From NCBI GenBank assembly GCA_049970495.1, contig JBMFMV010000003.1, positions 8,754-72,753 on the forward strand: a stretch of 64,000 nt of DNA, written 5' to 3'. Below are positions 18,490 to 43,592 of this stretch, one piece after another (the first letter of the stretch is position 1; each line of letters starts with the position of its first letter). The notes beneath the pieces were generated by a model that was not told where the DNA came from, made no database searches, and was given only the letters and a program-made list of their open reading frames with translations. The translations under genes were made by a program, and so were the position numbers. Origin of the DNA: a bacterium (GTDB taxonomy: Bacteria > DUMJ01).

Positions 18490-18519
18490 TTAGGGTCTTA
18501 GGGGATAACCTAAGACCCT
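18490..18519 (-). terminator. Strong hairpin terminator between the convergent CpxP-like gene and hypF (T-run on the minus-strand side)
   Basis: tagggtcttagg / cctaagacccta forms a 12-bp stem with loop ggataa. Minus-strand read continues into TCCTTTTTAC. Confidence 0.6.
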
Positions 18520-23554: not shown

Positions 23555-23566
23555 TGCTACCTCCTT

Positions 23567-24109: not shown

Positions 24110-24121
24110 AACTTTCCTCCT

Positions 24122-28496: not shown

Positions 28497-29882
28497 TTAG
28501 TAAAGATATCTCCAGGTTCTGCCGTCTTTTTTTATAAAGTCTTCTGCCTCTTTTGGACCAAAAGAACCTACCGAATAGATAGGAATTTGAGGATTATCCT
28601 TCCAGAATTCAATTATTGGTTGTACTATTTCCCACGCCTTTTCTATTTCATCTTCTCTTATAAATAGGGTCTGATCACCTCTAATGAGGTCTATAAAGAG
28701 TGTCTCATAAGCCTCTATATTCTGACTACTCCACTCCATAGAGGTAGGTATTGGACAGGATAGGATACTACTTCCTAGGGGCCTAAGCTGAAAACTCAGT
28801 ATAATTTTATTTTCTGGGGCAATTTTAAAGCCTATTATATCTTCTTGGGGTGTACAATCTAATAACTTTGAGAACAAGCCGGGTATTTTCTTAAATACAA
28901 TAATTGCTGATGTCTCTTTTTTCTTCAATTTCTTACCTGTCCTCAAATAAAAAGGCACACCATCCCATCTGAGATTCTCTATATAAAATTTTATTCCAGC
29001 GTATGTCTCTGTATAGGACTTAGAAAGTCCTTCATCTGCTAGGTATCCTTCATACTGTCCTCTTACTGTGTATAAGGGTACCTCTTCATATCTTATTTCC
29101 TTTATACTCTTTAAGACTTTTACTTTTTCATCTCTTATGGCGTTTTCGTTTATACAGCATGGCGGTTCCATAGCTATTAATGTGAGTATCTGGATTAGAT
29201 GGTTTTGTACCATATCTCTTAGAGCTCCAACTTTATCGTAGTATCCTAATCTTCCTTCTACGCCTACATCTTCTAATGCTGATATCTGTATATGATCTAT
29301 GAAGTTTCTATTCCAAATCCCTTCAAAGATTATATTAGAAAATCTTAGTCCAAAGATATTTTGTACCGTCTCTTTACCTAAAAAATGGTCTATTCTATAA
29401 ATCTCCTCTTCCTTAAAAAATTCTTTAATGATTCTATTAAGTCTCTTAGCAGATTCTAGATCATAGCCAAATGGCTTTTCAATGACTATTTTCCTTTTGT
29501 TAGAAAACTCTTTTAAAAGATGCCCTAGGTTTATAATTATTGATTCAAAAGTAAATGGTGGAGTAGCTAAATAGAAGATTAATTCTTCATCTTTAAATCT
29601 TGATAGAATCTCCTTTAGATTTTTATACTCCTCTATTTTGTCTAAGTCGATTCTTACAAATTCAAAGAGGGAGAAAAATCTAGGATCATCTGATTTTATA
29701 GAGGTCCTTAGCATTTGAATAAACTCTTCTTTCCCAACGTTAGGTCTTCTTCCCGTACCTATTATTTTTGAGCAGTTTATTAAATGATGTCCTCTATACA
29801 GGTTGTAAAGAACAGGGTACAATTTAGACCTTGCCAAATCTCCTAGTCCTCCAAATATTATTATTACAAATCTTCTTTCCAT
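28497..29882 (-). CDS. zwf: Glucose-6-phosphate 1-dehydrogenase
   Basis: RIDHFLGKE active-site motif, EKPFG, N-terminal FGGLGDLA NADP motif. Confidence 0.85.
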   Translation of the reverse strand: MERRFVIIIFGGLGDLARSKLYPVLYNLYRGHHLINCSKIIGTGRRPNVGKEEFIQMLRTSIKSDDPRFFSLFEFVRIDLDKIEEYKNLKEILSRFKDEELIFYLATPPFTFESIIINLGHLLKEFSNKRKIVIEKPFGYDLESAKRLNRIIKEFFKEEEIYRIDHFLGKETVQNIFGLRFSNIIFEGIWNRNFIDHIQISALEDVGVEGRLGYYDKVGALRDMVQNHLIQILTLIAMEPPCCINENAIRDEKVKVLKSIKEIRYEEVPLYTVRGQYEGYLADEGLSKSYTETYAGIKFYIENLRWDGVPFYLRTGKKLKKKETSAIIVFKKIPGLFSKLLDCTPQEDIIGFKIAPENKIILSFQLRPLGSSILSCPIPTSMEWSSQNIEAYETLFIDLIRGDQTLFIREDEIEKAWEIVQPIIEFWKDNPQIPIYSVGSFGPKEAEDFIKKDGRTWRYLY

Positions 29883-30043: not shown

Positions 30044-30619
30044 ATGAAATTAAAGGGCAAAAGGGTAGTAATTCTAGTTTCTAATGAATTTGAAGATATA
30101 GAAGTCTTTTATCCATTTCTTAGACTTAGCGAAGAAGGGGCATGGATAACTTTTGGTATATATCAGAGAGGATTTCATCCAAGGCCTGCGTTCCCTGGTA
30201 AGCCAATAACAGGAAGATTTGGACTTACTGTTCCTCCTATGTTTCATAGAGAAGGATATAGATATGATGTAAAAGAGGCTACCGAGTTGTCCCCTGATGA
30301 TTATGATGCAGTAATAATTCCGGGTGGATTTTCTCCAGACTATCTAAGGAGAGAGCCAAAGATTACCGAGTTTGTTAGTAAGATGTACGAACAGGGTAAA
30401 GTTGTAGCTGCTATATGTCATGGCCCCTGGCTTATAATCTCTGCCAAAATAGCTAAAGGAAAGAGAATAGCAGGTGTTACACCTATAAAAGATGATATAG
30501 AAAACGCAGGGGCCATCTTTGTTGATGAGCCAGTAGCAGTTGACGGAAATATAATAACAAGTAGAGTACCTGATGACCTACCTGAATTCTGTCAGGCTAT
30601 AATTAACGCTATGTCATAA
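30044..30619 (+). CDS. DJ-1/PfpI family protease/deglycase
   Basis: Nucleophile elbow AAICHGP. ATG at 30044 preceded by AGGAGG; the ORF-track TTG start at 30026 is not used. Confidence 0.8.
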   Translation: MKLKGKRVVILVSNEFEDIEVFYPFLRLSEEGAWITFGIYQRGFHPRPAFPGKPITGRFGLTVPPMFHREGYRYDVKEATELSPDDYDAVIIPGGFSPDYLRREPKITEFVSKMYEQGKVVAAICHGPWLIISAKIAKGKRIAGVTPIKDDIENAGAIFVDEPVAVDGNIITSRVPDDLPEFCQAIINAMS

Positions 30620-31621
30620 CTCCAACTTTACCACCTGGGTTAGGTTTAATGGCATGTCTGGATCTAGCCCCTTTTTTATAGCTCTATAATAACCTAGATA
30701 TTGAGCAAATGGCATATAAAGGACTAACCTTAGAAATTCGTTTAGCTCTGAATCTATATTGATTCCATTACTGGTCTTATCTCCTATTATAACGTACTGT
30801 CCACCAATTTCTCTGATCTCTTCTATCACCCTTAGTTCCTCCTCTTTTGCTGAATCTGATAAGAGTAGTATTACAATAGAGTCTTTTGTTAAGCTTGCCT
30901 TTGGCCCATGTCTAAACTCTAAAGTGTGATAGGCGTTAGTAAGGGAACTTGACATCTCTCTTACCTTTAGTGCAGATTCACAAGCAATACCGTAGAGAGG
31001 TCCTGAGCCTAAGAATATAATTTCTTTATATTCTTCCCTTGAGATTTTTTCTGCCCATTCTCTAGCAAGAGATAATACTCTTTGAGAAGATGTGGGGAGC
31101 TTTTCTTTAATAATGTTTATGTCTGACGAGTTAATCCCATTGAGTACTCCTAATTGAACTCCAAGTAACATAGAAGTAAAAGATTTTGTCATTACAACAC
31201 TATTCTCTTTTGCCGATTCTAAGATTATCGCCCTCTCACTTTTATAAGTTAACTGACTTTTAGCCTTAGTGGTTATAGAAATAAAATTTCCTTTTCCTAA
31301 AGACCTCACCTTTTCCATAGCCATCATTACCTCACTAGTCTCCCCTGATCTAGAAATACCAAGGTATAATGTAGGTCTTTTAGATATTACAGTATTCGAG
31401 AAAAAGATAAATTCTTGAGACGGAACACCTCGAGATGGGATACCTGTATAGTGTTGGGTAAAACTGGCTAGACTAAGGGCAAGATAATACGATGTCCCAC
31501 TTCCAAAGTAAATAATCTCTTCTTTGTTTCTAATTTCTTCTATACAGGGTGGATTATCTAATATCTCTTTCCAGACCTTTGGTTGGTCTTCTATTTCTTG
31601 TCTAGTATACTCTCCATACAT
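30614..31621 (-). CDS. Double-SIS-domain sugar-phosphate isomerase/deaminase (GlmS C-terminal-like; AgaS/FrlB/GlmD family)
   Basis: Two SIS modules (GSGTSY..., GSGPLYG...). ATG at 31621 with AAAGGAGG RBS; the ORF-track TTG start at 31630 is not used. Confidence 0.65.
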   Translation of the reverse strand: MYGEYTRQEIEDQPKVWKEILDNPPCIEEIRNKEEIIYFGSGTSYYLALSLASFTQHYTGIPSRGVPSQEFIFFSNTVISKRPTLYLGISRSGETSEVMMAMEKVRSLGKGNFISITTKAKSQLTYKSERAIILESAKENSVVMTKSFTSMLLGVQLGVLNGINSSDINIIKEKLPTSSQRVLSLAREWAEKISREEYKEIIFLGSGPLYGIACESALKVREMSSSLTNAYHTLEFRHGPKASLTKDSIVILLLSDSAKEEELRVIEEIREIGGQYVIIGDKTSNGINIDSELNEFLRLVLYMPFAQYLGYYRAIKKGLDPDMPLNLTQVVKLEL

Positions 31622-31730
31622 CCTAGTCAATCCTCCTTTTTATGGCTTAACGCCTTAATTAATAAAGCTTTACTTTGTATCTAAGTCAAATAGACTATCT
31701 CTTTTACTAAGAGATTATCACCTATAATTG

Positions 31731-33146
31731 TCAAAGAATTATATGGGCTGGTTTTAAGGTCCACGTTTGTAACTTGGCTAGCTCTATAATATTTGGAGCA
31801 CTAAAGTCCTCCGGAAGGATAATCCAATCCCATACCCCCTCTTCTTTGACTTGACTTTCAAGAAGTAAATTCCCTTTTATTATCTTGATATTTTCAGGTA
31901 GTGAAGTGTTGATAGGTAACTGAGAGATTAATACATTGGCCGTAGCAAAAAAGTCTATTGGGCTTACAATTTTGTCCTGAATAGTTATGGCTTCTGGAAT
32001 TCGGCCATTCTTATTAATAAATTCCAAAATCCATCTACAAGCGAAAGCAAGGTCTTCTTTATTAAAAAATATAACTTCGCTATCAATCCTTTTTATGGGT
32101 CCATAGATTGTATCAGGTAACTTAAATTTAGACTCTACTATACATAGATTGTTATCTATTAAGTTTACTAATAACGATAGGGCTAAATAGAAGATTTCAG
32201 CAGGTGATAATGTTATTCTATCAAATCCGTAATAGGTAATTTTAGAATTAATCTCTTTAGCTAGGTGAATAATTTCAGAAGTAGAAAATAACTCTTCTTT
32301 AGCTTTATTAAAGTATATACTGTAAGCCTCTCTAGCTGTTAGTATTTGAACGTCTGAATGTGAAGCTATATAGTTTAAATATTCAGAGAAGTATCCGAGC
32401 TCTTTTTTCATCCTCTCATAGGATTTTAATTTAGGGATAGTCCAACTGGAGCGATCTGTATTCTTACCCCTACTAAAATTGACACTATCCCAGAATTCAT
32501 AGGTGGCAAATTCACATGGATGATACCATATACTAATCACTCCACCGTCCTCATTTATAAGACGTCTAAAGATATTTTCGAAGTTTTCAATACCTACTTT
32601 GATTCCTTCATAACCTAGTTTTAGGTCAAGTCTTGTAGTATTCTCTCGAAGCCTAAGGATATTGAGTATCCCACAGTACCAGAAGGGCTTTTCATTAAGT
32701 CCTATATGCTCAGCTTCATCAAGATAGACTTGAATTCCCCAGTTTTTAAGAACAGGGTATACATGTGGTGCCCAAGAGGAACCCGGTTGTCCATAACAAG
32801 AAGGTATAACATCAAATGTGTCTATTATTTCCTCATACCCAATCCTTTCTCTAAGTTCAAATTCTTTTATCCCTTCTTCCCACCCAAGGTCTTTTAGATA
32901 TTCAGCTACTGTTGGATGAACACTGTGTAGATTAGTATGATATCCGATATCGTGCTTTTTTAATCTATCAATTATGTCATATCTTCCTCGCTCTTTTAAG
33001 GCTCTAACTTTCTCCCCTACTAATTTAAAGGTTCCTTTTATCTTATACGAATCTAGGACATCTATTATACCCTTGAGAGCGTCATCGCTTTGTGGAGTAA
33101 TAAAATCTTCCACGTCAAACCAAAGTAAGACATATACTTTAGACAT
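31731..33146 (-). CDS. Hypothetical protein with distant polysaccharide-deacetylase (CE4/NodB-like) N-terminal features
   Basis: WFDVEDF and HTNLHSVHP loosely resemble CE4 motifs 1 and 2. 471 aa. Weak assignment. Confidence 0.3.
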   Translation of the reverse strand: MSKVYVLLWFDVEDFITPQSDDALKGIIDVLDSYKIKGTFKLVGEKVRALKERGRYDIIDRLKKHDIGYHTNLHSVHPTVAEYLKDLGWEEGIKEFELRERIGYEEIIDTFDVIPSCYGQPGSSWAPHVYPVLKNWGIQVYLDEAEHIGLNEKPFWYCGILNILRLRENTTRLDLKLGYEGIKVGIENFENIFRRLINEDGGVISIWYHPCEFATYEFWDSVNFSRGKNTDRSSWTIPKLKSYERMKKELGYFSEYLNYIASHSDVQILTAREAYSIYFNKAKEELFSTSEIIHLAKEINSKITYYGFDRITLSPAEIFYLALSLLVNLIDNNLCIVESKFKLPDTIYGPIKRIDSEVIFFNKEDLAFACRWILEFINKNGRIPEAITIQDKIVSPIDFFATANVLISQLPINTSLPENIKIIKGNLLLESQVKEEGVWDWIILPEDFSAPNIIELAKLQTWTLKPAHIIL

Positions 33147-33261: not shown

Positions 33262-34713
33262 ATGGTGGAGGAATATACCTTTACTTTTGATTTCACTGAG
33301 AAAGACACTAAACAGCATTTCCCAATTACATTTGAGGTAAAAGAGGGAATAAAAGAGATGTTAATTATTGGAAGTTATCAACCTAAAGCAGCTGACAAGG
33401 AACTTTCTAAAGAACTTGCTAAGTCTGCCTTAAGACTTTATTTAAATCAGGGTGATATGCCTTTAGATGTAGATGCCTTGTCTGAAGATATTTTAGAAAA
33501 AGTAATGGCAGACTTTATTCCGGTGAGTAACCTTATAAACTTTAGAATCTTTGACTCACTAGGAAATTTTAGAGGAACAGGTGATAATAGGGTATCTGAC
33601 GGAATTCCTATAAAAATAGGTAATAACATTAGTTCTTTTGGTTGTGTCTCTGGAGAAATCTATCCAGGTACTTGGAGACTTATAGTTGAAACCCACGCAG
33701 TAATTAATAAATGCCGTTTGAATCTAAAGATTAGACTTAATGATAGAGAGGAGACTTATGATATACCAGAATTGGCTGGTCCTTATAGGCCTATATGGAA
33801 TAGAGAGCTACCTAAGAATGGTTGGGTTAAGGGAGATTTTCACTCCCATTCCAGGCATAGCGATGGGAGTATGACTATTGAAGAACTAGTTCAAAACGCT
33901 ATTGATAGGGGGCTTGATTTTATCTTTCTTACTGATCATAATAAGATTTCTGGATGGGAGACAGCTAAAGATGAAAAGTTTCCTCTTTTCCCTGGAATAG
34001 AGTTTACTACTTTTTGGGGACACTTTACAGCCTTTGGAATAACTAGATATATAGAATGGGATAGTATAAATCTTAATAGGGGAATAAATGAAGTTGCTGA
34101 GTTAGTTCATTCTCAAGGGGGTCTATTCTGTGTTGCTCATCCGTTTACAATAGGGGACCCTGTCTGTACCGGATGCAGATGCATCCTCGATGTAGATTGG
34201 AATTGTGTAGATGCTCTGGAGGTATGGGCTGGGACTTTTAGGCAGAGAAGACACGAGAATACCGAAACCTTAAAATTATGGCGAACTTTGTTGAACCAAG
34301 GTTATAGGGTAGTAGGAATAGGTTCTACAGATATCCATTCAACAAAGGATATTTATCCAGATATATCCATGACGTATGTCTTAGTAGAAGAGTTAACCCT
34401 TTCTAATCTATTGGACTCATTAAAGAAGGGGAGAGTCTATGTAACTAAAGGACCAAAAGTTAGCTTCGACATTGGAAATGCTATTATAGGGGATAGTATC
34501 AATACTTCTAAATCATCGGTAAATCTTAAGTATTCTATAACTATGGAATCTGATCTCAAGATTATTTATAACGGCAGAGAGACTAGCGCCATAAGAAATA
34601 CGAGCGCTGGAGAAGTAGAATTTATTCCAGAATACCCTGGTTATGTGTATCTAGAATTTTGGAAGGGAGGGGAATTAGTCGCTTTTACCAATCCAATATT
34701 TATAGAAGATTAA
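33262..34713 (+). CDS. PHP-domain metal-dependent phosphoesterase (CehA/McbA family) with ~170-aa N-terminal extra domain
   Basis: GDFHSHSRHSDGSMTIEELV...FLTDHNKISG...ALEVWAG PHP histidine/aspartate motifs. Confidence 0.7.
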   Translation: MVEEYTFTFDFTEKDTKQHFPITFEVKEGIKEMLIIGSYQPKAADKELSKELAKSALRLYLNQGDMPLDVDALSEDILEKVMADFIPVSNLINFRIFDSLGNFRGTGDNRVSDGIPIKIGNNISSFGCVSGEIYPGTWRLIVETHAVINKCRLNLKIRLNDREETYDIPELAGPYRPIWNRELPKNGWVKGDFHSHSRHSDGSMTIEELVQNAIDRGLDFIFLTDHNKISGWETAKDEKFPLFPGIEFTTFWGHFTAFGITRYIEWDSINLNRGINEVAELVHSQGGLFCVAHPFTIGDPVCTGCRCILDVDWNCVDALEVWAGTFRQRRHENTETLKLWRTLLNQGYRVVGIGSTDIHSTKDIYPDISMTYVLVEELTLSNLLDSLKKGRVYVTKGPKVSFDIGNAIIGDSINTSKSSVNLKYSITMESDLKIIYNGRETSAIRNTSAGEVEFIPEYPGYVYLEFWKGGELVAFTNPIFIED

Positions 34714-35989
34714 TCCCTCTGCCTATAGTAATGTTCCCGTAGGGAACTACATATAGAGTAGATTTTTCTTTCAAGGAGAGCATTTCTATTGCCTCTTCTA
34801 AATTATCTGCTTTCTTAAATCCTAAAAGTTTTACATCCTCTTCAGATAGATCAGTTATTATAACTACTTTTCGTTTCTTCAGTCCGACTCTAATGTCATA
34901 AGCTATCTTTCCTATCATATTAAAATCTTTTCTTAATTCTTTTTCTAACTCTATGGGTGACTCAATACCTAACCACTCTCTAAGATTCTCTGCCCCTAGC
35001 CCTTCGCTACAGGAAGCAACTAATATTATTCCTCCGTCTTCTTTTACCATCTGCATAGTATTTATTATAGATTTCATTGCTTGATAGAAATTGATATCAA
35101 ATGGGTATCCTCCAGCACTTACCAAGACCACATCAGCTTTCTGTTTTATTTCTACTGAGAATATCTTCTCGATTATCTTACACCCTGCTCGATGAGCCTG
35201 TTTCCAGTTAGTCCCTGAGACTATTCCAGAGAGTTTTCCTTCTGCGTTGAATATTGTATTTACAATGAAATCTATCCCTGCTAGTTCAGCTATCTCTTCC
35301 ATATCTTCATGAACAGGATTTCTATCTAAAATTCCAGCGGAAGCCATTGGATTATATCCTTTACCAAAGGATGGCTCTAGTAACATAAGATGATTATGAC
35401 TTATAGTAGGAAAGCCTGAGATGCCAGGTAAAATGGATTTTGCCCCTCCACTAAAACCTGCAAAGTCATGGTAGTTTATTGTTCCTGTTATTATCTTCAA
35501 TTCAGCTTCTAGATAATCTCTATTCAAATATATAGGGGTACCTCTAGAAGAGACACCCCTATATTCTAGAGAAGACATATCCCTGCAGTTATGATTTATT
35601 ATTCTGAGTTTATTTGTAACTTCTTCCCCTAATAGAGACCTGATTTCTTCTTGATTAAGCATGGGATGAGCACCTACTGCGATAATTATTTCAATGTTAT
35701 CTAATGGCATTCCCACTTTAGTAAGTTCTTCTAAGAGGATAGGCACAATTTCTTTTGCTAGAGTCCTTCTTGTCTTATCGCTAACTAGGATCACCGCAGA
35801 ATTTTTACCTTTAGCTACCTCTAAAAGAGATAATCCATACTTTGGTTTTCTGATAGTTTCGTAAATAGCTTCTTCCTGCTCCACTAATTCAGGATACCTT
35901 TTAGGCTTTAGGAAACCTAAAAGGTTTAACCCTCCTATATCGAACTCCTTTTCTTCTTTATTGTAAGGTAGTTTTACTATTTCTTCCAT
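34700..35989 (-). CDS. LarA-like (nickel-pincer-dependent 2-hydroxyacid racemase/epimerase family; DUF2088)
   Basis: 429 aa. ...VVLVSAGGYPFDINFYQAMKSI... matches the LarA core. Convergent 14-nt overlap with the PHP gene. Confidence 0.55.
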   Translation of the reverse strand: MEEIVKLPYNKEEKEFDIGGLNLLGFLKPKRYPELVEQEEAIYETIRKPKYGLSLLEVAKGKNSAVILVSDKTRRTLAKEIVPILLEELTKVGMPLDNIEIIIAVGAHPMLNQEEIRSLLGEEVTNKLRIINHNCRDMSSLEYRGVSSRGTPIYLNRDYLEAELKIITGTINYHDFAGFSGGAKSILPGISGFPTISHNHLMLLEPSFGKGYNPMASAGILDRNPVHEDMEEIAELAGIDFIVNTIFNAEGKLSGIVSGTNWKQAHRAGCKIIEKIFSVEIKQKADVVLVSAGGYPFDINFYQAMKSIINTMQMVKEDGGIILVASCSEGLGAENLREWLGIESPIELEKELRKDFNMIGKIAYDIRVGLKKRKVVIITDLSEEDVKLLGFKKADNLEEAIEMLSLKEKSTLYVVPYGNITIGRGINLL

Positions 35990-36927
35990 AATTCAGGTAG
36001 AGGATATTCATCTAATAGTTTCTTCATTTTAACTTTTATCTCCTCGTCAGCAGGACTTAGTGGTAGTCTTGGTATTCCACCAGGAAGTCCTACCAGATTC
36101 ATTCCTGCCTTCAGTTTTATAATATAGTCTGCCAGGCTATCTCCAACTTCTAGTATATAGTCTAAGAGTGGTCCGGCCTGTTTTAGTATCATCTTCGCCC
36201 TATCATAATCTTTCTTTTCTTCAGCCTCGTATATACTTAGACAGGTCTTTGGTATTAGACATGCCTCCCCAGTGACAAATCCACGAGCTCCCATCAGACT
36301 AGCATAAGGTTCATGTGGTTCTCCTGCTCCATTGACTATAGAAATTTTATCACCCAATACTTCTATCATCTTGGCTAGTTTACTTATATAAGGAGAGTTA
36401 TCTTTTAATGCTACGATATTAGGGACCTCTCCAACAAGTCTTGCCATTGTTTCTATGGGTATATCTAATTGTGAAGCAAACCAGTTATTATAGACCATAA
36501 TGCCTAGTTTTGTCTCTTTAGCTATGGCCTTGTAGTGGTTTAAAAGTATCTTCTCCGAAGGTTTCCAATAGTAAGGCGGACTTATCATAACACCATCAAG
36601 TCCTGCCTCTTCTGCATAGTGGACTAGCTTTATAACAGTTCTTGTATCTGTATGATTACATCCACCAATAACAGGAACCACATCACCAGCTTCTTCTTTT
36701 ACAATCTTGAATATCCTTCTCCTTTCCTCATCTGTAAGCATTGGACATTCTCCGGTACTACCAGCAGGAACTAAGACCCCATTTCCTTCTTTTATACCGC
36801 TATCTATGAGGAATCTAGTGAGTCTTCTTAGTCCACCCTCATCTAACTCATAATCTTCTTTAAATGGAGTTACCATAACTACAACTATACCTTTAACTTT
36901 ATCCTTTAGATCCTTAAATTCTAACAT
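35977..36927 (-). CDS. DapA/N-acetylneuraminate-lyase family Schiff-base aldolase/synthase
   Basis: VTPF...GSTGE motif. Candidate Schiff-base lysine in VALKDNS. ATG at 36927 chosen over the GTG at 36939. Overlaps the LarA-like start by 13 nt. Confidence 0.75.
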   Translation of the reverse strand: MLEFKDLKDKVKGIVVVMVTPFKEDYELDEGGLRRLTRFLIDSGIKEGNGVLVPAGSTGECPMLTDEERRRIFKIVKEEAGDVVPVIGGCNHTDTRTVIKLVHYAEEAGLDGVMISPPYYWKPSEKILLNHYKAIAKETKLGIMVYNNWFASQLDIPIETMARLVGEVPNIVALKDNSPYISKLAKMIEVLGDKISIVNGAGEPHEPYASLMGARGFVTGEACLIPKTCLSIYEAEEKKDYDRAKMILKQAGPLLDYILEVGDSLADYIIKLKAGMNLVGLPGGIPRLPLSPADEEIKVKMKKLLDEYPLPELWKK

Positions 36928-37129
36928 TTTAATCGACACCTCCTGAAAGCTTAATGTCTGATCTAGGTTGAAATTTTATCAAGTTTATACTTAATTGTCA
37001 AAGGTTTCCCTGCTAATAAGTCTAACTTTTCTTTGAAGATGTAAGATTATAATATATTAAACTCTTGTATATTAATCGATTTGTAGTAAAATATATGCAA
37101 GATTGTCAGGGTTTGGAAGGAGGGTAATT

Positions 37130-38449
37130 ATGGAAGAATATGTACCTTATGAATTAAAAGGCAAAAAGATCCTAGAGATTATTCATATTGGTTCTAAGTT
37201 TAGTAAAGAGGAGTCTATAGAACTCAAATTTTATATAAAGACCAATAAAGATTTAGTAAAAGTAGCAAAAGATATAGCTAGAGACGAAACTACTGGTCCT
37301 TGGGTTGGGCAAGGGGAACCAACAGAGCTCTTTATCCGTTCTCAGGCAGATGTGGATAGAATAGAGAGGTATGGGGAGAATGAGGGTGTAATCTATGTAA
37401 GAACACCTCTTTCTAATATCTCCCAGGAAGCAGATCCTTTATATCAGTTTATTATGCTTGCAGTCGGAGGACCTGTATTGGAATTTGTTTATTATCAACA
37501 AGTAGCGTTTTTAGACTTTACCTTCCCAGAAAGTTTTTTGATGAGATTTTCAGGTCCGAAGTTTGGAATAAATGGTGTTAGAAAACTCTTAAATCTCAAA
37601 GATGGAGAACCTATTGTCGGAACAATAATGAAACCTTGTGCGGGATTAACCCCTAAAGAAGTGGCAGAGAGGTGTTATCAAGCTGCCCTTGGGGGTGTGA
37701 TGTTTATAAAGGATGATGAAAAGATGTTGGGACCTAGCTATTGCCCCTTAGAAGAAAAGGTAAAACTTGTATCTCAGGCTTTGAAAAGGGCAGAAGAGGA
37801 GACAGGGAGAAGGTGTCTCTATGCCCCTCATATAGTTGCTAGAGCAGACAAGATTAAGGATATCGCTAAGAGGGCTATAGAGTGGGGAGCTACTGCCTTG
37901 ATGTTTAATGCAGTACTAGGTCATACATATGAGGCTCTTAGTATCTTAGCTGAAGATAACGAGATAAACGTTCCTCTTTATGCCCACTCTGGTGGTAGAT
38001 CTGGTTTGTCAACAGGTCCAAGGAGGATAGATGATACTGTAATAGCAAAGTTGTTAAGATATAGTGGAGCAGATTTCTTCCAACATGGAGTTTTTGGTAT
38101 GAAAGAGATGCATGTTGCTTCATTGGATGATGGATTACTTCATAATCTGATTAAGGTCTTAAGAGAAGACACTCCAGGTATTAAGGATACAATCCCTGTA
38201 GCTGCCGGTGGCCTTGGAGTAACAAATGTTGGGATAAATCTTAAAGAGCATAGGGATGAAAAATTTGGCTATGGTGTTGCTCTATTAGCAGGTTCTAACG
38301 TATTAAAACATCCTGATGGTCCTAAAGCGGGGGCTATAGCTATGCATCAGGCAATTCAAGCCTATTATGATGAAGGAATAGTAGATAAGGACAGACTAAA
38401 TGAATATGCTATAAGAAGAGGGTATAAAGAATTATTGAAAATACTATAA
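37130..38449 (+). CDS. RuBisCO-like protein (form IV RLP of the RuBisCO large-subunit superfamily)
   Basis: GTIMKPCAGL (K175 kept, K177 to C) and FIKDDE (K201, D203, E204 kept) align to RbcL TIKPKLGL / FTKDDE. PVAAGGLG and AHSGG align to the SGGIH and HIHR regions. ATG preceded by GGAGG. Confidence 0.75.
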   Translation: MEEYVPYELKGKKILEIIHIGSKFSKEESIELKFYIKTNKDLVKVAKDIARDETTGPWVGQGEPTELFIRSQADVDRIERYGENEGVIYVRTPLSNISQEADPLYQFIMLAVGGPVLEFVYYQQVAFLDFTFPESFLMRFSGPKFGINGVRKLLNLKDGEPIVGTIMKPCAGLTPKEVAERCYQAALGGVMFIKDDEKMLGPSYCPLEEKVKLVSQALKRAEEETGRRCLYAPHIVARADKIKDIAKRAIEWGATALMFNAVLGHTYEALSILAEDNEINVPLYAHSGGRSGLSTGPRRIDDTVIAKLLRYSGADFFQHGVFGMKEMHVASLDDGLLHNLIKVLREDTPGIKDTIPVAAGGLGVTNVGINLKEHRDEKFGYGVALLAGSNVLKHPDGPKAGAIAMHQAIQAYYDEGIVDKDRLNEYAIRRGYKELLKIL

Positions 38450-38463
38450 AATGGGAGGGGATT

Positions 38464-41400
38464 ATGAGAAAAATCCATCTTGTTCCACATTTTCACTGTG
38501 ACCCTGTCTGGATAGCAGATCAGAATATGTACCAAGAGGGAGGGGAAAATCTCCCTAGGATGACTCGCCATCCCTTTGGATTTTTGGACTTAGTAAGATC
38601 CTATCTGGATTGTTGTAGAAAAGATGAAGAATATACCATTTTTCTCTCCGAATTAGACTATCTAAAACCATATTGGGATATGTATCCAGAGGATAGAAAA
38701 TTTATAAGATACCTTATATCTAGAAGAAGGCTAGATTTAGGAGGTTCTTATAATGAGCCTAATGAAAATAGTATAGGAGAAGAGGCGCTAGTTAGAAATG
38801 TCCTCTATGGAATGACATTTCATAAACTGCAATTAGGTGCGGACCCAAAGGTTTATCTTCCTTTAGATGTATTTGGACATACAATTCAGCTTTCTCAGAT
38901 TCTAAAGAAGAGTGGATTTCAGGGATGTATTTGGTCCAAGCATGTAGTAGGATTTCCTCCAGTGTTTTATCATATGTCTCTAGATGGAAGTGTTCTCCTA
39001 CATAGAAGAGTAGACTATGGTGGACACTTCCAGAATATAGATATATTGAAGGAAGACTTATCTCTGAGATTTGAAGAAACAGAAAGTATGAGAATAGATG
39101 TAGATTTAAGGTTTATAGGTGGTGATTCAGACCCCCCTACTGAATGGCTTACAGGGAGGAGTAAAGAACTACGAGAGGGGAGAATTCCTATTTTCCTTTC
39201 TGTTCCTAGTAGGTATATAGAGGAACTTCAGAATAGAATAAAGGGGAAAAGGTTTAGTATTCCATACAGTTCTAGAGATATGGCGTTTTACCATATAGGA
39301 ACCTCTCTATCTAGGGTAGAATTGAAGATAGCGAACAGGCTAGGGGAGATTAAACTCTTAAAGGCAGAAAGATTTGCTACTATATCTTATCTACTTGGAG
39401 CCAAATATCCTCATAAGGCTTTAGATAAAGCGTGGAGACAATTACTATTTAATCAGCATCATGATGCTATAACAGGAACTTCAGGAGATAAACCTTACGT
39501 TGATCTTATGATAGGATACAGGGAATCTCTAAGATTATCCAGTTCTATACTTAATAGTTCACTTAAGTTTCTCTCTTCACTAATAGATACTGAGGGACAG
39601 GGGGTTCCTATTGTTGTGTTTAATAGTCTAAATTGGACTCGCTCTGACCTGTGTAAGATCAAGCTTCCTGTCGGATCTTACAAGATAGTAGATAGTACAG
39701 GGAAGATTTACTCATCTCTCAGTGTAGAAAAAGGGAATAATGTTGAAGTCTTTTTCATAGGAGAAGACATTCCACCACTAGGATATAAGGTATTCTTTGC
39801 TATTCCAACCAAGAATAAGAAAGAATTAATAAGGGATAGAGGAACAGTTATAGAGAATGATTTCTATCGTATAGAAGTAGACCCTACCAAAGGTGGAAGG
39901 ATTAAGAGTCTTGTTTATATGGGTAGAGAATTTGTAAAAGAAGAGAGAGGAATGAATGAACTTATTTTACTCAAAGAAGATCCAAATAGAAGGGAACCTT
40001 CTTGGGAAGTATTTACTACAGGTGAAAAGTTAAGTTCAAGCGAATTTCCAGCAGATGTGGAAAGAGAAAGGAATGAACTATATGAAAGACTCATTATATC
40101 AGGAAGAATAGGAGATTTCTGTAAATTTAGACAGATAATAACCCTTTATAAAGGTATAGAAAGAATAGAGTTTGTTACTGATATTATTGATTATAAGAAG
40201 AAGACCTCAGAAGATGATATGTTTGTCGTTGTATTCCCTACCACTTTAGAAAATACCCTTCCTACTTTTGAAGATAGATTTGGAGCATTAACAAGGAGAA
40301 AGAGTAGGGGATATCTAGACTTTAGAACTTGGCAGTGGAGGAATTATTCTAGTTGTGGTATATATCCAGCTTATAGATGGGTAGATTTAGGTCCCTCAGT
40401 GACTATAAGGATAGGGTCAAGTAGTTTGCCAATCGGCCTTACAGATATAATAATACCGCACAATAAAGATTTGGAATCTAATATCCCTATTCTGTTGAAG
40501 TCTTTAGCTAATAAGGGGATAACAGCCTCTATTATGTATGATGATAACGATATGGATAGACGAAGTAAGCTTTTGAGTGAGGATAGCACTTTACCACTGT
40601 TTGAGGAGGACATATTTGCAACATTTAGAGTTTCTATAGGGCTTCCTAATAACAGTTACATAGAAAGAATAATTTCTAGACTGCCGAAGGAAGTCGTAGA
40701 GAGATTCCAGAAGGCTATAGAAGAGAAGGGTTATGGGTTACTTCTAGTAGAAGAAGATGTACCGGTACTTGTAATTTCTGCTAAGAATATATCCAGTCTT
40801 ATAGATATTTTTACTAGGATAGAAAAGGATTTAGCCGATAGAATAATTGACCTTTCTGAAGATGAAGGGTATATATCTTACAAAGAAGTTCCTTCTTTTG
40901 GATTGACTCTAATAAACAAAGGTAATATAAGTAACAGTGTAGAGAATGATAATACTATTGTAATGCTCTTACAACATACCGCAAGATGGTCTGGTAAGCA
41001 CTTTGACTTTGACTTTGTTCCTGAAGAAGGGACCCATAGGTTTATATATGCCCTTTATCCTCATAAGGGCACTTGGATAGAGGCAAAGTCTTATAAAAAG
41101 GCGATAGAGTTCAATTTTGAACTAGATAGTATAGTCACAGATTCTCATAGCGGCTATTTCCCAAAGAATCATAGCTTTATAAATTTTGGAAATAGCGATA
41201 TTATACTTACTGCTTTAAAGTTAGAAGGAGTTCCTTTAGCAGGGCCGATTATGGATGCTGGTGATAGTGATAATATCATAATAAGGGTATATGAACCTTG
41301 TGGTAGAGAAACCTGCTTTGATATTTACTCTAGTTTTCCTATTTTAGAGGCGCAAAGGACAGACCTTATGGAGAATGAAATTACTCCTATTAGTAGTTTT

Positions 41401-42096
41401 TACCTTACGCCATTTTCTATTGAAACTTATAAGCTTTCATTAAAAAGAAACCCTTTAAGATATGTAGATTATGATATTCAGACAGAACCATATCAACCGG
41501 TATATGTAAGATATTGGAGACATAATGCTGGAGCTTCTCCCGTTGGAAATCTCCCAATAGTGGTGTCTTTAAGAAAAGAAGGAGATAAAATAACTCTTTA
41601 TGTGGCAAATGATTTTGTTGATAAAAAAGTTTTAGGTAAGGTTTGCCTTAGATCTGTAGGGATCGAATTAGATAAAAGAGAGATAGAGTTTGACCTTTTT
41701 CCATCTGCTTATGCTAGATATGAAGTTGCTCAATGCAAAGAGGAGAAACCTAGTATTGTAGAAGCTTTATGGGAGTGTGATGGGCAGAGTTATAAAGATG
41801 TACTTATTTTAGGAGAGTTGAAAGCTCTAGATGTATCTTTTAAAGATGGAAAGATAGATATATACAATCCAAATTGGTTCGAAGTGGAGGGAGAAGTTAT
41901 TATAGGGGCTCCTATAGAATTGTGGGGTAAAGAACTTACTGGAGATTTTTCTTTCGACGCTATTCCTGAAAGATTTAGCTTTTACTGTAAACCTAATGGC
42001 AATTACAGTTTAGAAATTAGTGTTGAAAGACCCAATAATTGGAGTATGGTAAAACTAGCCTATATGGGTAAAACCCTTTATCTAAGACCAAAGTAA
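38464..42096 (+). CDS. Glycoside hydrolase family 38 alpha-mannosidase-type enzyme, unusually large (1210 aa)
   Basis: N-terminal VPHFHCDPVW, LDVFGHT and FNQHHDAITGTS GH38 signatures. Starts 14 nt after the RLP stop with GGGAGGGG RBS. Confidence 0.8.
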   Translation: MRKIHLVPHFHCDPVWIADQNMYQEGGENLPRMTRHPFGFLDLVRSYLDCCRKDEEYTIFLSELDYLKPYWDMYPEDRKFIRYLISRRRLDLGGSYNEPNENSIGEEALVRNVLYGMTFHKLQLGADPKVYLPLDVFGHTIQLSQILKKSGFQGCIWSKHVVGFPPVFYHMSLDGSVLLHRRVDYGGHFQNIDILKEDLSLRFEETESMRIDVDLRFIGGDSDPPTEWLTGRSKELREGRIPIFLSVPSRYIEELQNRIKGKRFSIPYSSRDMAFYHIGTSLSRVELKIANRLGEIKLLKAERFATISYLLGAKYPHKALDKAWRQLLFNQHHDAITGTSGDKPYVDLMIGYRESLRLSSSILNSSLKFLSSLIDTEGQGVPIVVFNSLNWTRSDLCKIKLPVGSYKIVDSTGKIYSSLSVEKGNNVEVFFIGEDIPPLGYKVFFAIPTKNKKELIRDRGTVIENDFYRIEVDPTKGGRIKSLVYMGREFVKEERGMNELILLKEDPNRREPSWEVFTTGEKLSSSEFPADVERERNELYERLIISGRIGDFCKFRQIITLYKGIERIEFVTDIIDYKKKTSEDDMFVVVFPTTLENTLPTFEDRFGALTRRKSRGYLDFRTWQWRNYSSCGIYPAYRWVDLGPSVTIRIGSSSLPIGLTDIIIPHNKDLESNIPILLKSLANKGITASIMYDDNDMDRRSKLLSEDSTLPLFEEDIFATFRVSIGLPNNSYIERIISRLPKEVVERFQKAIEEKGYGLLLVEEDVPVLVISAKNISSLIDIFTRIEKDLADRIIDLSEDEGYISYKEVPSFGLTLINKGNISNSVENDNTIVMLLQHTARWSGKHFDFDFVPEEGTHRFIYALYPHKGTWIEAKSYKKAIEFNFELDSIVTDSHSGYFPKNHSFINFGNSDIILTALKLEGVPLAGPIMDAGDSDNIIIRVYEPCGRETCFDIYSSFPILEAQRTDLMENEITPISSFYLTPFSIETYKLSLKRNPLRYVDYDIQTEPYQPVYVRYWRHNAGASPVGNLPIVVSLRKEGDKITLYVANDFVDKKVLGKVCLRSVGIELDKREIEFDLFPSAYARYEVAQCKEEKPSIVEALWECDGQSYKDVLILGELKALDVSFKDGKIDIYNPNWFEVEGEVIIGAPIELWGKELTGDFSFDAIPERFSFYCKPNGNYSLEISVERPNNWSMVKLAYMGKTLYLRPK

Positions 42097-43592
42097 TTGA
42101 GGATAATTGCACCTATGTAGACAATTAATCCCATAATTACTAAGTATATGAGAGAGTAAGGGAATATTATTCTCATCAATTTCCCTTCCTCTCCTTTTTT
42201 ATTTATCCCCGAGACTGCTAGAGTAAGGTTTTGTAAAGATATAAGTTTCCCTCCTGTGGCTCCGCTAGCATTGGCACTAGCTAGCCATACCTGAGGGACC
42301 CCTATACTTTTACCTGCTTCCGTCTGTAAAGTCCCAAAAAGGACATTCGAGGCAGTATCACTTCCCCCCAAGAATGTTCCTATGGCTCCTAGAAATGGTG
42401 ATATAAATGGGTAGAAACTGCCAAATATCTGTATGAGTTTAATGGCAAGAAACTTAGTCATACCCGCATAACTCATAATATTAGCCATAGCCATCATAGA
42501 AGTAATAATTGAAATAGTAGGTAGGATCTGTATTAATGTCCCTAAAAGTGCCTTCTTATAGTCAATTAGTCTAGCATTTAATATTAGTCCTCCAATAATT
42601 GTCGAGATTAATATGAGTGTCCCGGGTGTATAAAGGGGATCTATCTTTATACTCTTATTTATCGGTTCAAGTCTCAGTGTAAGTGAGAGAGGATAAGATG
42701 TTAGTATTTCACTCATACCCTTGCTAAACCTTGTTATAAGTATAAGTAAAACAATCAATATATATGGAACCCATGACCTTAAATCTTCCTTAGAGACCTT
42801 TTCTTTGATATTTCTCTTCTCTACTAATCTTAAATAGAGTATTAGAAAACCTATAGTAAAGAATGAGGCTAGGATTGCAGGTAATTCTGGCCCTATATAC
42901 CAGCCAACAAGACTCTGTGTTATAGCGAAAGAAAATCCAGTTCCTAAGAGAAGGAATATACTAGCAGATTCCTTAAGTTCCCTCTTTATAAAAAATGGAA
43001 TAAGTAGCGTTACGGGAAAGAGCTGTAGGCCTATTGTTCCACTAAGAGCTTTTATTGGTAGGTTAGTAACTCTTGCCAAAGCTATTACTGGTACCCCTAT
43101 AGCAGCATAGACAACGGGGATAGTATTTGATAGTAGAGAGACTATAGCTGACTGATATAGTGGAAATCCTAATGATAATAGGATAGCAGAAGGAACTATT
43201 ACGGAAGTACCAAACCCTGCTATACCTTCAAGAAGGGCTCCAAAACAGAAAGCTATTATAAGAGCTTGTATTATCTTCTTATCAGATATGCCAGATAAAC
43301 TCCTTTTGATTCCATCTATAGCTTCTGTCTCACAGATCAATCTATAGGTAAAAAGAGCTCCAAAAATAGTCCAAATAATAGGGTATAGAGAAGAGACGAT
43401 CCCATCTATAATACTCCAGTAGATTATATTAATAGTAACATCCCAGAAAAATATTGCTCCTAAAATTGTTACAAGAAGAGATATGATACAGGCTAAATAA
43501 GGCTTTGTGACTCTAAATATAAGTGCGTAACAGAGCCACAGAAGAGGAATTACAGCTGATAATAGCATTAGTAGCTCTCTGTATCTTTCCAT
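42078..43592 (-). CDS. lctP: LctP-family permease (L-lactate/glycolate/hydroxy-acid)
   Basis: ALIIAFCFGALLEGIAGFGTSVIVPSAILLSLGF and FLGAIGTFLGGSDTASNVLFGTLQ closely match E. coli LldP blocks. 504 aa. Confidence 0.8.
   Translation of the reverse strand: MERYRELLMLLSAVIPLLWLCYALIFRVTKPYLACIISLLVTILGAIFFWDVTINIIYWSIIDGIVSSLYPIIWTIFGALFTYRLICETEAIDGIKRSLSGISDKKIIQALIIAFCFGALLEGIAGFGTSVIVPSAILLSLGFPLYQSAIVSLLSNTIPVVYAAIGVPVIALARVTNLPIKALSGTIGLQLFPVTLLIPFFIKRELKESASIFLLLGTGFSFAITQSLVGWYIGPELPAILASFFTIGFLILYLRLVEKRNIKEKVSKEDLRSWVPYILIVLLILITRFSKGMSEILTSYPLSLTLRLEPINKSIKIDPLYTPGTLILISTIIGGLILNARLIDYKKALLGTLIQILPTISIITSMMAMANIMSYAGMTKFLAIKLIQIFGSFYPFISPFLGAIGTFLGGSDTASNVLFGTLQTEAGKSIGVPQVWLASANASGATGGKLISLQNLTLAVSGINKKGEEGKLMRIIFPYSLIYLVIMGLIVYIGAIILNYFGLR

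Follow-up and report, generated by a model that had tools for sequence, protein, structure and literature searches.

The gene at positions 37130-38449 of the window, the whole 64,000-nucleotide stretch of DNA analysed here, encodes a member of the RuBisCO large-subunit superfamily. Judged from its sequence, the product belongs to an uncharacterised subfamily of form IV RuBisCO homologues (RuBisCO-like proteins, RLPs), and it is predicted not to carboxylate RuBP. It keeps the metal/carbamate core and almost certainly carries out a sugar-phosphate chemistry other than CO2 fixation, a reading that follows from the loss of residues expected to hold the substrate. RuBisCO evolved either from such non-carboxylating relatives or in parallel with them, and very few RLP reactions have been worked out. 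The subfamily is termed clade A, a provisional name coined here; a literature search that did not cover key RLP reviews found no published work on it.

The ATG start of the gene lies 7 nt past a GGAGGG; the TTG at 37103 given in the ORF listing is an unlikely start. Homologues P0001-P0023 are 438-439 aa long, with a coverage of 100%. The Pfam catalytic-domain model PF00016 matches residues 146-418 with 122.7 bits against a gathering threshold of 30.1 (E 2.3e-35), a resemblance far above chance level. The AlphaFold model (pLDDT 92.7, pTM 0.92) has the two-domain fold of the RuBisCO large subunit, with an N-terminal alpha/beta domain and a C-terminal TIM barrel. Foldseek aligns it with 2d69, 2qyg, 6hun and 3a12 at TM 0.82-0.84 over about 420-450 columns, and TM values are 0.82-0.84 to form III RuBisCOs and four RLP structures, 2zvi among the matches. 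The coordinates of the gene, its motifs and its downstream neighbour are collected in Table 1.

Table 1. Features of the RLP locus in window coordinates; the equivalences pair the protein's own residues with spinach RbcL numbering, and counts refer to the 161 homologues.
Feature	Position	Strand	Remarks
RuBisCO-like protein (RLP) gene	37130..38449	+	439 aa plus stop; ORF real
D52-ETTGPW58, N-terminal-domain motif	37283..37303	+	D52=E60, P57=T65, W58=W66
GGPVLEF	37466..37486	+	P115 replaces N123; Pro in 161/161
I166-M-K168-P-C170-AGL	37625..37648	+	I=T173, K=K175 (kept), C=K177; each 161/161
MKPCAGL, residues 167-173	37628-37648	+	within the I166 motif
FIK194-D-D196-E197, residues 192-197	37703..37720	+	carbamylation Lys K201 and Mg2+ ligands D203/E204; all 161/161
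AH286-S287-GG-R290-SGLS-TGPRR299	37982..38026	+	H=H294 (kept), S=R295, R=H298; conserved TGPRR follows
AHSGGRSG, residues 285-292	37982-38005	+	start of the AH286 motif
DFF-Q318-H319-GVFGM-K325-EM-H328-VAS	38072..38122	+	Q=H327 (lost), H319=S328, K325=K334
DFFQHG, residues 315-320	38072-38089	+	start of the Q318 motif
PVA-A359-G360-G361-LG, residues 356-363	38195..38218	+	A=S379; G380/G381 kept
L-A-G388-S389-N390, residues 386-390	38285..38299	+	G=G403 (kept), S=G404, N=G405
GH38 alpha-mannosidase-family gene	38464..42096	+	1210 aa; 14 nt 3' of the RLP gene

The register against spinach RbcL was established by HMMER pairwise alignments to 6hun and 2cwx, by MAFFT alignments with spinach, 6hun, 2cwx, 2zvi and 20 to 161 homologues, and by hhalign profile-profile comparison of the subfamily with bona fide RuBisCOs (probability 100, E 1e-65). 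The spinach reference is identical at 475/475 residues to PDB chain 1ir1_A, a chain grouped by sequence with 8ruc. The three approaches agree in pairing K168 and C170 with K175 and K177, K194/D196/E197 with K201/D203/E204, H286 and S287 with H294 and R295, and A359/G360/G361 with S379/G380/G381. The motifs quoted in a preliminary description of this DNA all occur in the ORF translation, and its by-eye assignments of MKPCAGL (K175 kept, K177 to C), FIKDDE (K201/D203/E204 kept), AHSGGRSG (H294 kept, R295 to S) and PVAAGGLG (S379 to A, G380/G381 kept) recur in each alignment. A shifted register at 175/201/203/204, which it had named as grounds for refutation, did not materialise.

Its reading of QHG as a retained H327 proved to be one residue off. 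In the gapless pairing of DFFQHGVFGMK with DHIHSGTVVGK, position 327 is Gln (Q318) and the His falls at 328 (H319). We take position 327 to be part of the RuBisCO distal-phosphate site, so the correction strengthens the non-RuBP conclusion by adding one more lost residue of that site. The same description had LAGS replacing the glycines at 403-404; the G404 to S replacement stands and the loss of G403 does not, as G388 aligns with G403, the preceding Ala with F402, S389 with G404 and N390 with G405. Further replacements that it had not listed are N123 to P, T173 to I, T65 to P and H298 to R.

Among the RuBP-binding and catalytic residues of bona fide RuBisCOs (N123, T173, K175, K177, H294, R295, H298, H327, K334, S379, G380, G381, G403 and G404), the protein shows N123P, T173I, K177C, R295S, H298R, H327Q, S379A and G404S, and at least eight RuBP-contacting positions are replaced in the alignments. 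The carbamylatable Lys and the metal ligands of the K201-x-D203-E204 motif are present. The protein thus matches the broad definition of form IV, a RuBisCO large-subunit homologue without several residues essential for RuBP carboxylation.

Form III RuBisCOs (P. horikoshii 2cwx/2d69, H. butylicus 6hun, T. kodakarensis 3a12) match best in both sequence and structure, with E-values of 1e-37 (6hun) to 1e-30. They have a KDDE metal site, a GG phosphate loop and H294 in common with the RLP; the window's protein also carries the K334 equivalent. These likenesses would suit a true if unusual RuBP carboxylase, for instance a form III-like enzyme in a nucleoside/AMP pathway. However, identity is 26-28% to form III enzymes and only 22-28% to bona fide RuBisCOs, and the eight substitutions are consistent over 161 homologues. 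Scores fall short of the curated cut-offs of form III, form II and large-subunit models: the form III model TIGR03326 gives 168.9 bits against a cut-off of 497, PRK04208 156.4 against 438 and PRK13475 120.1 against 489, and AMP phosphorylase, R15P isomerase and PRK are absent from the annotated neighbours. The substitutions relative to form III, together with the TIGR03326 score, suggest that the RLP should neither bind nor carboxylate RuBP, and a carboxylase is strongly disfavoured, to the point of being hardly credible. Known RLPs score no better than form III (C. tepidum 1ykw, 122.6 bits; R. palustris RLP2 2qyg, 108.9; 3nwr, 98.9). Homologues are annotated as 'RuBisCO large subunit C-terminal-like domain-containing protein' or 'large subunit-like protein'.

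Conservation was assessed over 161 distinct homologues, all from MAGs or metagenome contigs, which form 25 lineages at 80% identity. Clade A is widespread among uncultured bacteria, with hosts in at least six phyla that include Dictyoglomota-like, Poribacteria, Ratteibacteria, Omnitrophota, Aerophobetes and Planctomycetota genomes. The window's own protein probably derives from a thermophile. The active-site signature is nearly invariant, and K175, K201, D203, E204, H294, G380, G381, G403 and W66 are kept by every homologue. The replacements are held almost as tightly: position 295 is Ser in 146/161 (Cys in 12, Thr in 3), 298 is Arg in 149/161 (Leu in 12), 327 is Gln in 159/161, 379 is Ala in 159/161, and 404 is Ser in 150 and Thr in 11. 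In the alignments the pocket is not merely degraded but swapped for another strongly conserved set, P123/I173/C177/S295/R298/Q327/A379/S404, a point that the preliminary description had missed. Further residues, in the protein's own numbering, are also fixed: R298 is invariant in alignment A1, and H328 and S331 are invariant within the subfamily. Cys177 was considered as a unique catalytic hallmark and dropped, since Cys also occurs there in many unrelated RLP representatives.

Other positions vary. The K334 equivalent is Lys in only 56/161 homologues, and position 328 is Ile in 84 and His in 69. This non-uniformity at the loop 6 Lys334 position and at 298 suggests that substrates may differ among sublineages. 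Among clade A homologues, position 60 is Asp, Glu or Asn and position 65 is variable, alongside the invariant W66; in RuBisCO, E60, T65 and W66 are contributed by the partner subunit.

A non-catalytic or regulatory role, in which the RLP would be a binding protein and its metal site a relic, was also considered. To our knowledge, no reaction has been assigned to RLPs of the Chlorobium IV-Photo type. Some RLPs, such as this type, are tied to stress and sulfur phenotypes (PMC6389311), and the scattered gene context of clade A points to no pathway. Against such a role, every one of the 161 homologues retains the Mg/carbamate triad together with H294 and K175, and residues invariant in the subfamily form a conserved second shell. 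This is the pattern expected of purifying selection on a working active site, and makes a relic site very unlikely.

The preferred reading, to which we give an even chance, is that clade A RLPs are Mg2+/carbamate-dependent enolising isomerases or epimerases that act on a phosphorylated ketose and do not carboxylate RuBP. The preliminary description had proposed a metal-dependent enolase or isomerase on a non-RuBP substrate; the intact metal/carbamate site, altered pocket and non-RuBP substrate agree with our results, while sequence tools neither show nor exclude an enolase or isomerase specifically. From membership, fold, kept and replaced residues, conservation and neighbourhoods, we infer carbamylation, metal binding, enolisation and a substrate class as follows. 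Carbamylated Lys194, with Asp196 and Glu197, would hold Mg2+, to which a phosphorylated keto-sugar would bind through its carbonyl and the neighbouring hydroxyl (or carboxylate). The retained Gly360-Gly361/Gly388 backbone pocket would receive the phosphate, below Trp58 from the partner subunit. The carbamate, Lys168 or His286 would act as the base that takes the alpha-proton to give a metal-stabilised enediolate, whose reprotonation elsewhere or on the other face would yield an isomerase, tautomerase or epimerase reaction in place of CO2 addition. The substrate would most likely be a ketose mono- or bisphosphate that is passed on to a kinase and a class II aldolase as carbohydrates are degraded.

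Enolate-type chemistry is common to all characterised RLPs (PMC6302742, PMC7325909). They enolise DK-MTP-1-P and decarboxylate or transcarboxylate 3-oxo-isoapionate-4-phosphate, and an isomerisation has been reported for the R. rubrum RLP (PMC6302742).

The gene context of clade A was compared over 102 loci of the 25 lineages, and neighbouring ORFs were clustered around 85 and later 166 loci. No conserved operon partner emerges, with no neighbour family in more than 5/25 lineages, so that assignment by guilt by association is impossible. The recurrent neighbours are sugar-phosphate genes, namely PFK, PfkB, class II ketose-bisphosphate aldolase, GatZ-like and Gfo/Idh/MocA. The RLP gene is adjacent to and co-directional with PFK-family kinase, class II aldolase and PfkB genes in lineages 10 and 14, and lies together with a class II ketose-bisphosphate aldolase and a PfkB kinase in lineage 11. 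A GatZ/KbaZ-like gene is immediately upstream in lineages 7 and 8, a Gfo/Idh/MocA dehydrogenase gene adjoins it in lineages 1 and 4 and is nearby in lineage 5, and a xylose-isomerase-like TIM barrel is encoded within 8 kb in five lineages. Several lineages have the RLP gene amid housekeeping genes such as TilS, GltX, PurH and MiaB-like.

Sister clades B and C, from Anaerolineae, Armatimonadota, Verrucomicrobiota and other MAGs, are 33-45% identical to clade A and also uncharacterised. They share the K175/K201/D203/E204/H294/GG/G403 core and have Ser/Cys at 295 and Arg/Lys at 298, whereas 177 is Thr/Gly, 327 Arg/Asp and 379 Ser. Unlike clade A, they are regularly near PfkB kinases in sugar-utilisation clusters: at 29 loci a PfkB kinase gene occurs within the 10-kb flanks, and at several of these it is the immediate neighbour. 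FGGY kinase, DeoC/LacD aldolase, mannitol-dehydrogenase-family and ribulose-phosphate-3-epimerase-family genes also occur nearby.

A side reaction of RuBisCO yields xylulose-1,5-bisphosphate by reprotonation of the 2,3-enediolate that its first step forms. A specific form of the preferred reading, which we consider speculative and rather unlikely, makes clade A a ketose-(bis)phosphate 3-epimerase/isomerase in which the 2,3-enediolate of the RuBisCO-like first step would be reprotonated rather than receive CO2, supplying a PFK/PfkB kinase and class II ketose-bisphosphate aldolase in anaerobic heterotrophs. We know of no RLP to which this reaction type has been assigned.

Salvage of SAM by-products would instead make the RLP a housekeeping enzyme with no need of a dedicated operon, either an MtnW-like DK-MTP-1-P enolase or an isomerase of 5-methylthioribulose-1-phosphate (MTRu-1-P) or 5-deoxyribulose-1-phosphate like that reported for the R. 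rubrum RLP. The top NCBIfam match and best-scoring curated family is indeed MtnW, and the solved structures nearest to the RLP include B. subtilis MtnW (2zvi). Some homologues carry the JGI pipeline annotation 'DK-MTP-1-P enolase', and the lack of a conserved operon, with TilS, GltX or radical-SAM MiaB-like neighbours in some lineages, would suit this role. MtnW enzymes of the YkrW type (B. subtilis 2zvi, G. kaustophilus 2oek) have the same two-domain fold (TM 0.80-0.81) and the K175/K201/D203/E204/H294 core, with K177 and R295 replaced in both groups. However, identity is 29-31%, and the scores fall below half of the curated equivalog cut-offs (PRK09549, 178.6 bits against 409; TIGR03332, 143.1 against 513.6). 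The RLP also differs in Ala379 (Ser in MtnW), GG380-381 (AG) and Gln327, and has an invariant Pro at 123 where one alignment gives Lys in B. subtilis MtnW, a position aligned inconsistently across alignments and assumed here to be the site of the MtnW catalytic Lys. No methionine-salvage gene (mtnA, mtnK, mtnB, mtnX, mtnD) is found among the annotated recurrent neighbours at the 102 loci, which instead encode kinases and aldolases of hexose phosphates. Salvage is considered unlikely.

The proposed logic for clade A resembles that of the D-apiose-pathway RLPs (the 3-oxo-isoapionate-4-phosphate decarboxylase OiaX and the related transcarboxylase/hydrolase), which act on a phosphorylated keto sugar derivative in carbohydrate catabolism. 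A decarboxylase or transcarboxylase/hydrolase on a phosphorylated 3-oxo acid-sugar, as in that pathway or in four-carbon acid-sugar pathways, is conceivable, though quite improbable. It would accord with the match to the OiaX model NF042437, with the D-2-hydroxyacid dehydrogenase gene that adjoins the RLP gene in three lineages, with the MR/MLE enolase-superfamily gene upstream in L025 and L029, and with window neighbours that handle hydroxy- or keto-acids (a LarA homologue, a DHDPS-family lyase and an LctP permease). The OiaX score, however, is 131.7 bits against a cut-off of 700. A DUF1537-type kinase, the usual partner in acid-sugar RLP pathways, is absent from the annotated recurrent neighbours, and clade A has PFK, PfkB and class II aldolase where the D-apiose RLPs have acid-sugar kinase partners. 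The LarA and DHDPS genes were inserted together recently, as just 2/5 closely related loci have them, and the pair was rejected as a lineage-specific rather than functional partnership.

In the window, the neighbours of the RLP gene are the GH38 glycosidase, the LctP-family permease, the LarA homologue and the DHDPS-family lyase. No sugar kinase or bisphosphate aldolase is among them, and this, with the scattered context across lineages, counts against the preferred reading of an enolising isomerase or epimerase. The GH38 and RLP genes are probably co-transcribed in the window's lineage only. No terminator-like site separates them, and a promoter/terminator scan of 36700-42400 gave counts not above shuffled controls. 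A GH38 gene stands beside the RLP gene at nine loci of two lineages, is absent in L007 and is divergent in L008; with co-transcription limited to one lineage, a functional link is not established. The window's PHP (CehA/McbA) protein was rejected as a counterpart of the Metallophos+PHP gene near Omnitrophota RLPs, as BLASTP gave no similarity (E 0.14). The window contains no tRNA genes.

As regards the window, the finding serves chiefly as a warning: the gene encodes an ordinary RLP, though an uncharacterised one, and is no evidence of carbon fixation. For the family, clade A now has a fixed signature of P123, I173, K175, C177, K201, D203, E204, H294, S295, R298, Q327, A379, G380, G381, G403 and S404. 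A compact subfamily with two sugar-kinase-linked sister clades offers a concrete target for enzymology, and the candidate substrates are few. Should the proposed function prove true, it would add one further enolate reaction to the superfamily and help to prevent the mis-annotation of these genes in metagenomes as markers of CO2 fixation or methionine salvage. A 3-epimerase/isomerase, if that is what clade A proves to be, would provide a plausible model of the pre-carboxylase ancestor.

The gene for the RuBisCO-like protein (RLP) begins at an ATG preceded by GGAGGG seven bases earlier in the window sequence, and the ATG-started product is covered over 100% of its length by the nearest RLP homologues, which are 438-439 aa long. 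This start is therefore preferred to the TTG of the ORF listing (37103-38449, +). Against the Pfam model of the RuBisCO large-chain catalytic domain the product scores 122.7 bits (gathering threshold 30.1, E 2.3e-35), and every motif quoted in the preliminary description lies at its expected place. Its top PDB sequence matches, all at roughly 25-30% identity, are the form III enzymes 6hun (1.1e-37) and 2cwx (2.6e-36) and several RLPs, namely B. subtilis MtnW 2zvi (3e-36), 3fk4, 2oek, the RLP of C. tepidum (1ykw) and RLP2 of R. palustris (2qyg). AlphaFold, given an alignment of 19 sequences, predicts the structure with confidence (pLDDT 92.7, pTM 0.92), and Foldseek finds the model as close to form III enzymes as to RLPs of solved structure (TM 0.82-0.84).

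Features of the window in the surroundings of the RLP gene
Feature	Position	Strand	Remark
URO-D-like (uroporphyrinogen-decarboxylase-family) gene	15142-16194	+	21 kb from RLP
Formate-tetrahydrofolate ligase	16191-17834
HypF, NiFe-hydrogenase large and small subunits, NuoG-like Fe-S/molybdopterin protein	18510-25780	-
G6PD	28497-29882	-	further upstream of RLP
SIS-domain sugar-phosphate isomerase or deaminase-like gene	30614-31630	-	further upstream of RLP
DJ-1/PfpI			further upstream of RLP
471-aa ORF	31731-33146	-	polysaccharide-deacetylase 20.9 bits vs 23.1, sub-threshold
CehA/McbA PHP metallohydrolase	33262-34713	+	249 bits vs cut-off 80
LarA homologue	34700-35989	-	overlaps DHDPS-family lyase by 13 nt
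DHDPS-family lyase	35977-36939	-	upstream of RLP, divergent
RLP gene	37130-38449	+	ATG start, 439 aa
GH38-family glycosidase, 1210 aa	38464-42096	+	starts 14 nt after RLP stop
LctP-family permease	42078-43592	-	348.7 bits vs 341; converges on GH38, overlap 19 nt

The residue register was established against spinach RbcL (475/475 residues identical to PDB 1ir1_A, whose sequence group includes 8ruc) by three routes: HMMER pairwise alignments of the RLP with 6hun and 2cwx; MAFFT alignments with spinach, 6hun, 2cwx, 2zvi and 20, 75 and 161 homologues; and a profile-profile alignment by hhalign of clade A, to which the query belongs, with eight bona fide RuBisCOs (probability 100, E 1e-65). A shifted by-eye register would have placed other residues at positions 175, 201, 203 and 204; none was found, and the three routes agree with the earlier reading that Lys175 and the metal/carbamate residues are kept, as are His294, Gly380 and Gly381, while Lys177, Arg295 and Ser379 have become Cys, Ser and Ala. 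Two points of that reading require revision. LAGS had been taken to replace the glycines at 403-404, of which the second is indeed Ser and the first is retained. His327 had been described as kept, whereas the gap-free pairing of DFFQHGVFGMK with DHIHSGTVVGK places Gln at 327 and the His at 328. Further changes are Asn123 to Pro, Thr173 to Ile, Thr65 to Pro and Glu60 to Asp.

Spinach RbcL positions, the aligned query residues and their state in 161 distinct full-length clade-A sequences
Spinach	Query	All three routes	Clade A
W66			unchanged, 161/161
N123			P, 161/161
T173			I, 161/161
K175	K168	kept	unchanged, 161/161
K177	C170	changed	C, 161/161
K201	K194	kept	unchanged, 161/161
D203	D196	kept	unchanged, 161/161
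E204	E197	kept	unchanged, 161/161
H294	H286	kept	unchanged, 161/161
R295	S287	changed	S 146, C 12, T 3
H298	R290	changed	R 149, L 12
H327	Q318		Q, 159/161
S328	H319		I 84, H 69
K334	K325		K, 56/161
S379	A359	changed	A, 159/161
G380	G360	kept	unchanged, 161/161
G381	G361	kept	unchanged, 161/161
G403	G388	kept	unchanged, 161/161
G404	S389	changed	S 150, T 11
G405	N390	changed

Across clade A, the carbamylated-Lys/metal site is intact and invariant, as are Lys175 and His294, and the backbone phosphate pocket (Gly380, Gly381, Gly403) and Trp66 are equally preserved. The motifs ETTGxW, GGPxLEFVYY and TGPRR, and a His-x-x-Ser after loop 6, are also invariant and specific to the subfamily. Cys177 was considered as a clade-A speciality and dropped, since many other RLP representatives carry Cys there. 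Judged by these conservation patterns, the clade-A pocket is not decayed; a different, selected residue set is in place. Since the catalytic core is so strictly conserved, a non-catalytic protein has only a very small chance of being correct.

A word-indexed search (E <= 1e-10) returned 293 relatives, of which the nearest (86-91% identical) come from Dictyoglomi or unclassified MAGs, the closest named homologue being from a Dictyoglomi MAG (87%), and a tier at 51-66% identity comprises Poribacteria, Ratteibacteria and Omnitrophica. Pattern scans recovered 80 loci in GTDB species-representative genomes, all of them MAGs or uncultured isolates, and 79 in JGI metagenomes; the closest, L087, is 94% identical to the query. 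Among 1.84 billion cluster representatives, searched exhaustively with HMMER, there are 1423 superfamily members (E <= 0.001), only three of which exceed 50% identity to the query, so clade A is compact within a very diverse, largely unstudied superfamily.

The query misses every curated NCBIfam cut-off by far: MtnW (PRK09549, 178.6 against 409; TIGR03332, 143.1 against 513.6), form III (TIGR03326, 168.9 against 497), large subunit (PRK04208, 156.4 against 438), OiaX (NF042437, 131.7 against 700) and form II (PRK13475, 120.1 against 489). The protein is a member of the RLPs in the broad sense and works like them, but the curated definitions of MtnW, OiaX and form III exclude it. Eight of the positions that contact RuBP are replaced, which makes carboxylation very unlikely, and a true carboxylase receives almost no weight; the query is almost certainly a non-carboxylating RLP enzyme. 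A role in salvage of SAM by-products would fit MtnW being the best, though weak, NCBIfam match, and the scattered housekeeping gene context. It is nevertheless unlikely, because the MtnW thresholds are failed, position 123 is Pro, and methionine-salvage genes are absent from the annotated recurrent neighbours.

The reactions of MtnW, the R. rubrum RLP and the apiose-pathway RLPs all proceed via a Mg2+-stabilised enediolate at the carbamylated-Lys site. MtnW enolises DK-MTP-1-P, isomerisation has been reported for the R. rubrum RLP, and apiose-pathway RLPs decarboxylate or transcarboxylate 3-oxo-isoapionate-4-phosphate (PMC6302742). One summary considers isomerases or epimerases likely for most RLPs (PMC7325909).

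In the query, the metal site and phosphate pocket are kept, and Arg295, His298 and His327, which we take to be the distal phosphate site of RuBP, are Ser, Arg and Gln. From this combination we infer a phosphorylated keto-sugar substrate, with one phosphate held in the conserved pocket. The keto-sugar would be enolised at the metal and then reprotonated, the product being its isomer or epimer. A second anionic group, either phosphate or carboxylate, could find a binding site in Arg290 and the arginines of the TGPRR motif. Enolisation-type chemistry on a phospho-keto-sugar has roughly even odds of being right, and confidence in any particular substrate is low.

Gene context was compared between the window and four closely related loci, L005-L008. 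Of all the neighbours, only the LctP permease adjoins the RLP in each of these five Dictyoglomota-like loci. GH38 is next to the RLP in four of the five, and the PHP hydrolase lies inside the sequenced flank in 4/5. No terminator-like site was found between RLP and GH38; GH38 adjoins the RLP in nine loci of two lineages (clade-A clusters at 80% RLP identity), is missing from L007 and divergent in L008, and has only a weak match to mannosylglycerate hydrolase (110 bits, cut-off 1138). Such associations are lineage-level synteny and weak evidence of function. The N-terminal ~185 aa of the PHP hydrolase have no family match; a CehA/McbA PHP gene occurs near the RLP again in Dictyoglomota-like loci and L012, and the Metallophos+PHP gene near Omnitrophota RLPs proved unrelated (BLASTP E 0.14). 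The 471-aa ORF has no NCBIfam match and is conserved in L006 and L007.

The LarA family comprises nickel-pincer 2-hydroxyacid racemases or epimerases, and the homologue here falls below its nearest models, LarAH10 (394 bits against 540) and the malate racemase LarAH6 (376 against 500). The LarA and DHDPS pair is found in only 2/5 closely related loci and looks like an inserted two-gene module. Hydroxy-acid genes near the RLP in the window and in some lineages would suit an OiaX-type decarboxylase of 3-oxo acid-sugar phosphates, which is rather improbable given a score of 132 against 700 and the recent insertion of this pair.

The remaining window genes are housekeeping (shikimate genes, MnmE/MnmG, FTHFS, NiFe hydrogenase with HypF, HrcA-DnaK-DnaJ, AdoHcy hydrolase and CTP synthase). 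The hydrogenase block and formate-tetrahydrofolate ligase suggest an anaerobic, H2-metabolising host. URO-D-like genes recur near clade A and B RLPs at nine loci (also L001:391-1485 and L081:14970-16049).

When ORFs were called and clustered at 102 clade-A loci, no neighbour family was shared by more than 5 of the 25 lineages. The recurrent families are all in sugar or sugar-phosphate metabolism. They comprise a xylose-isomerase-like TIM barrel (five lineages, not adjacent to the RLP), a Gfo/Idh/MocA dehydrogenase (adjoining in lineages 1 and 4, near in lineage 5), a GatZ/KbaZ-like gene (immediately upstream on the same strand in lineages 7 and 8, ~4 kb off in lineage 3), a D-2-hydroxyacid dehydrogenase (three lineages) and DUF4432 (one lineage in the final clustering). 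The most telling context is provided by co-directional strings. In lineages 10 and 14, the string runs from GltX and the RLP to a PFK-family kinase (222 bits against 430) and a class II aldolase (372 aa), both divergent, and then PfkB (for example L023, 1-6000; L086, 5496-11207; L128; L129). In lineage 11, the RLP stands between a class II ketose-bisphosphate aldolase and a PfkB ribokinase-like kinase (L132; L134:4266-7494). If one substrate had to be named from these PFK, PfkB and class II aldolase contexts, it would be a ketohexose (bis)phosphate. In other lineages, the RLP lies amid housekeeping genes (TilS, PurH, a GidA-like gene, GltX).

The same pattern scans show that sister clades B and C share the K175/K201/D203/E204/H294/GG core with clade A. 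Clade B (Anaerolineae, Verrucomicrobiota, Kiritimatiellia and others) is 35-45% identical to the query and differs in Thr177, Arg327 and Ser379, whereas clade C (Armatimonadota and relatives) is 33-36% identical, with Gly177 and Asp327. At 29 clade B/C loci, the 10 kb flanks include a PfkB kinase, which in several cases adjoins the RLP directly. Genes often found alongside encode a xylose-isomerase-like TIM barrel, FGGY kinase, DeoC/LacD aldolase, mannitol-dehydrogenase-family and ribulose-phosphate-3-epimerase-family proteins, a small cupin, a DeoR regulator and sugar ABC transporters. Such a make-up is the hallmark of catabolic clusters for phosphorylation of a sugar and its subsequent rearrangement. 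Clade B/C RLPs sit inside sugar-utilisation clusters at L032-L084 (for example L055:8965-9930, L067:5059-6054 and L073:11257-12267). Neither clade appears to have been characterised, and assigning a function may be easier for them than for clade A.

A literature search on clade A found nothing. Public pipelines already label its homologues RuBisCO-like, so clade A represents a new, uncharacterised addition to the RLPs already recognised, and the finding is expected to be no surprise to a specialist. The gene should not be taken as a sign of carbon fixation or methionine salvage, and clade A offers a well-defined target for function discovery.
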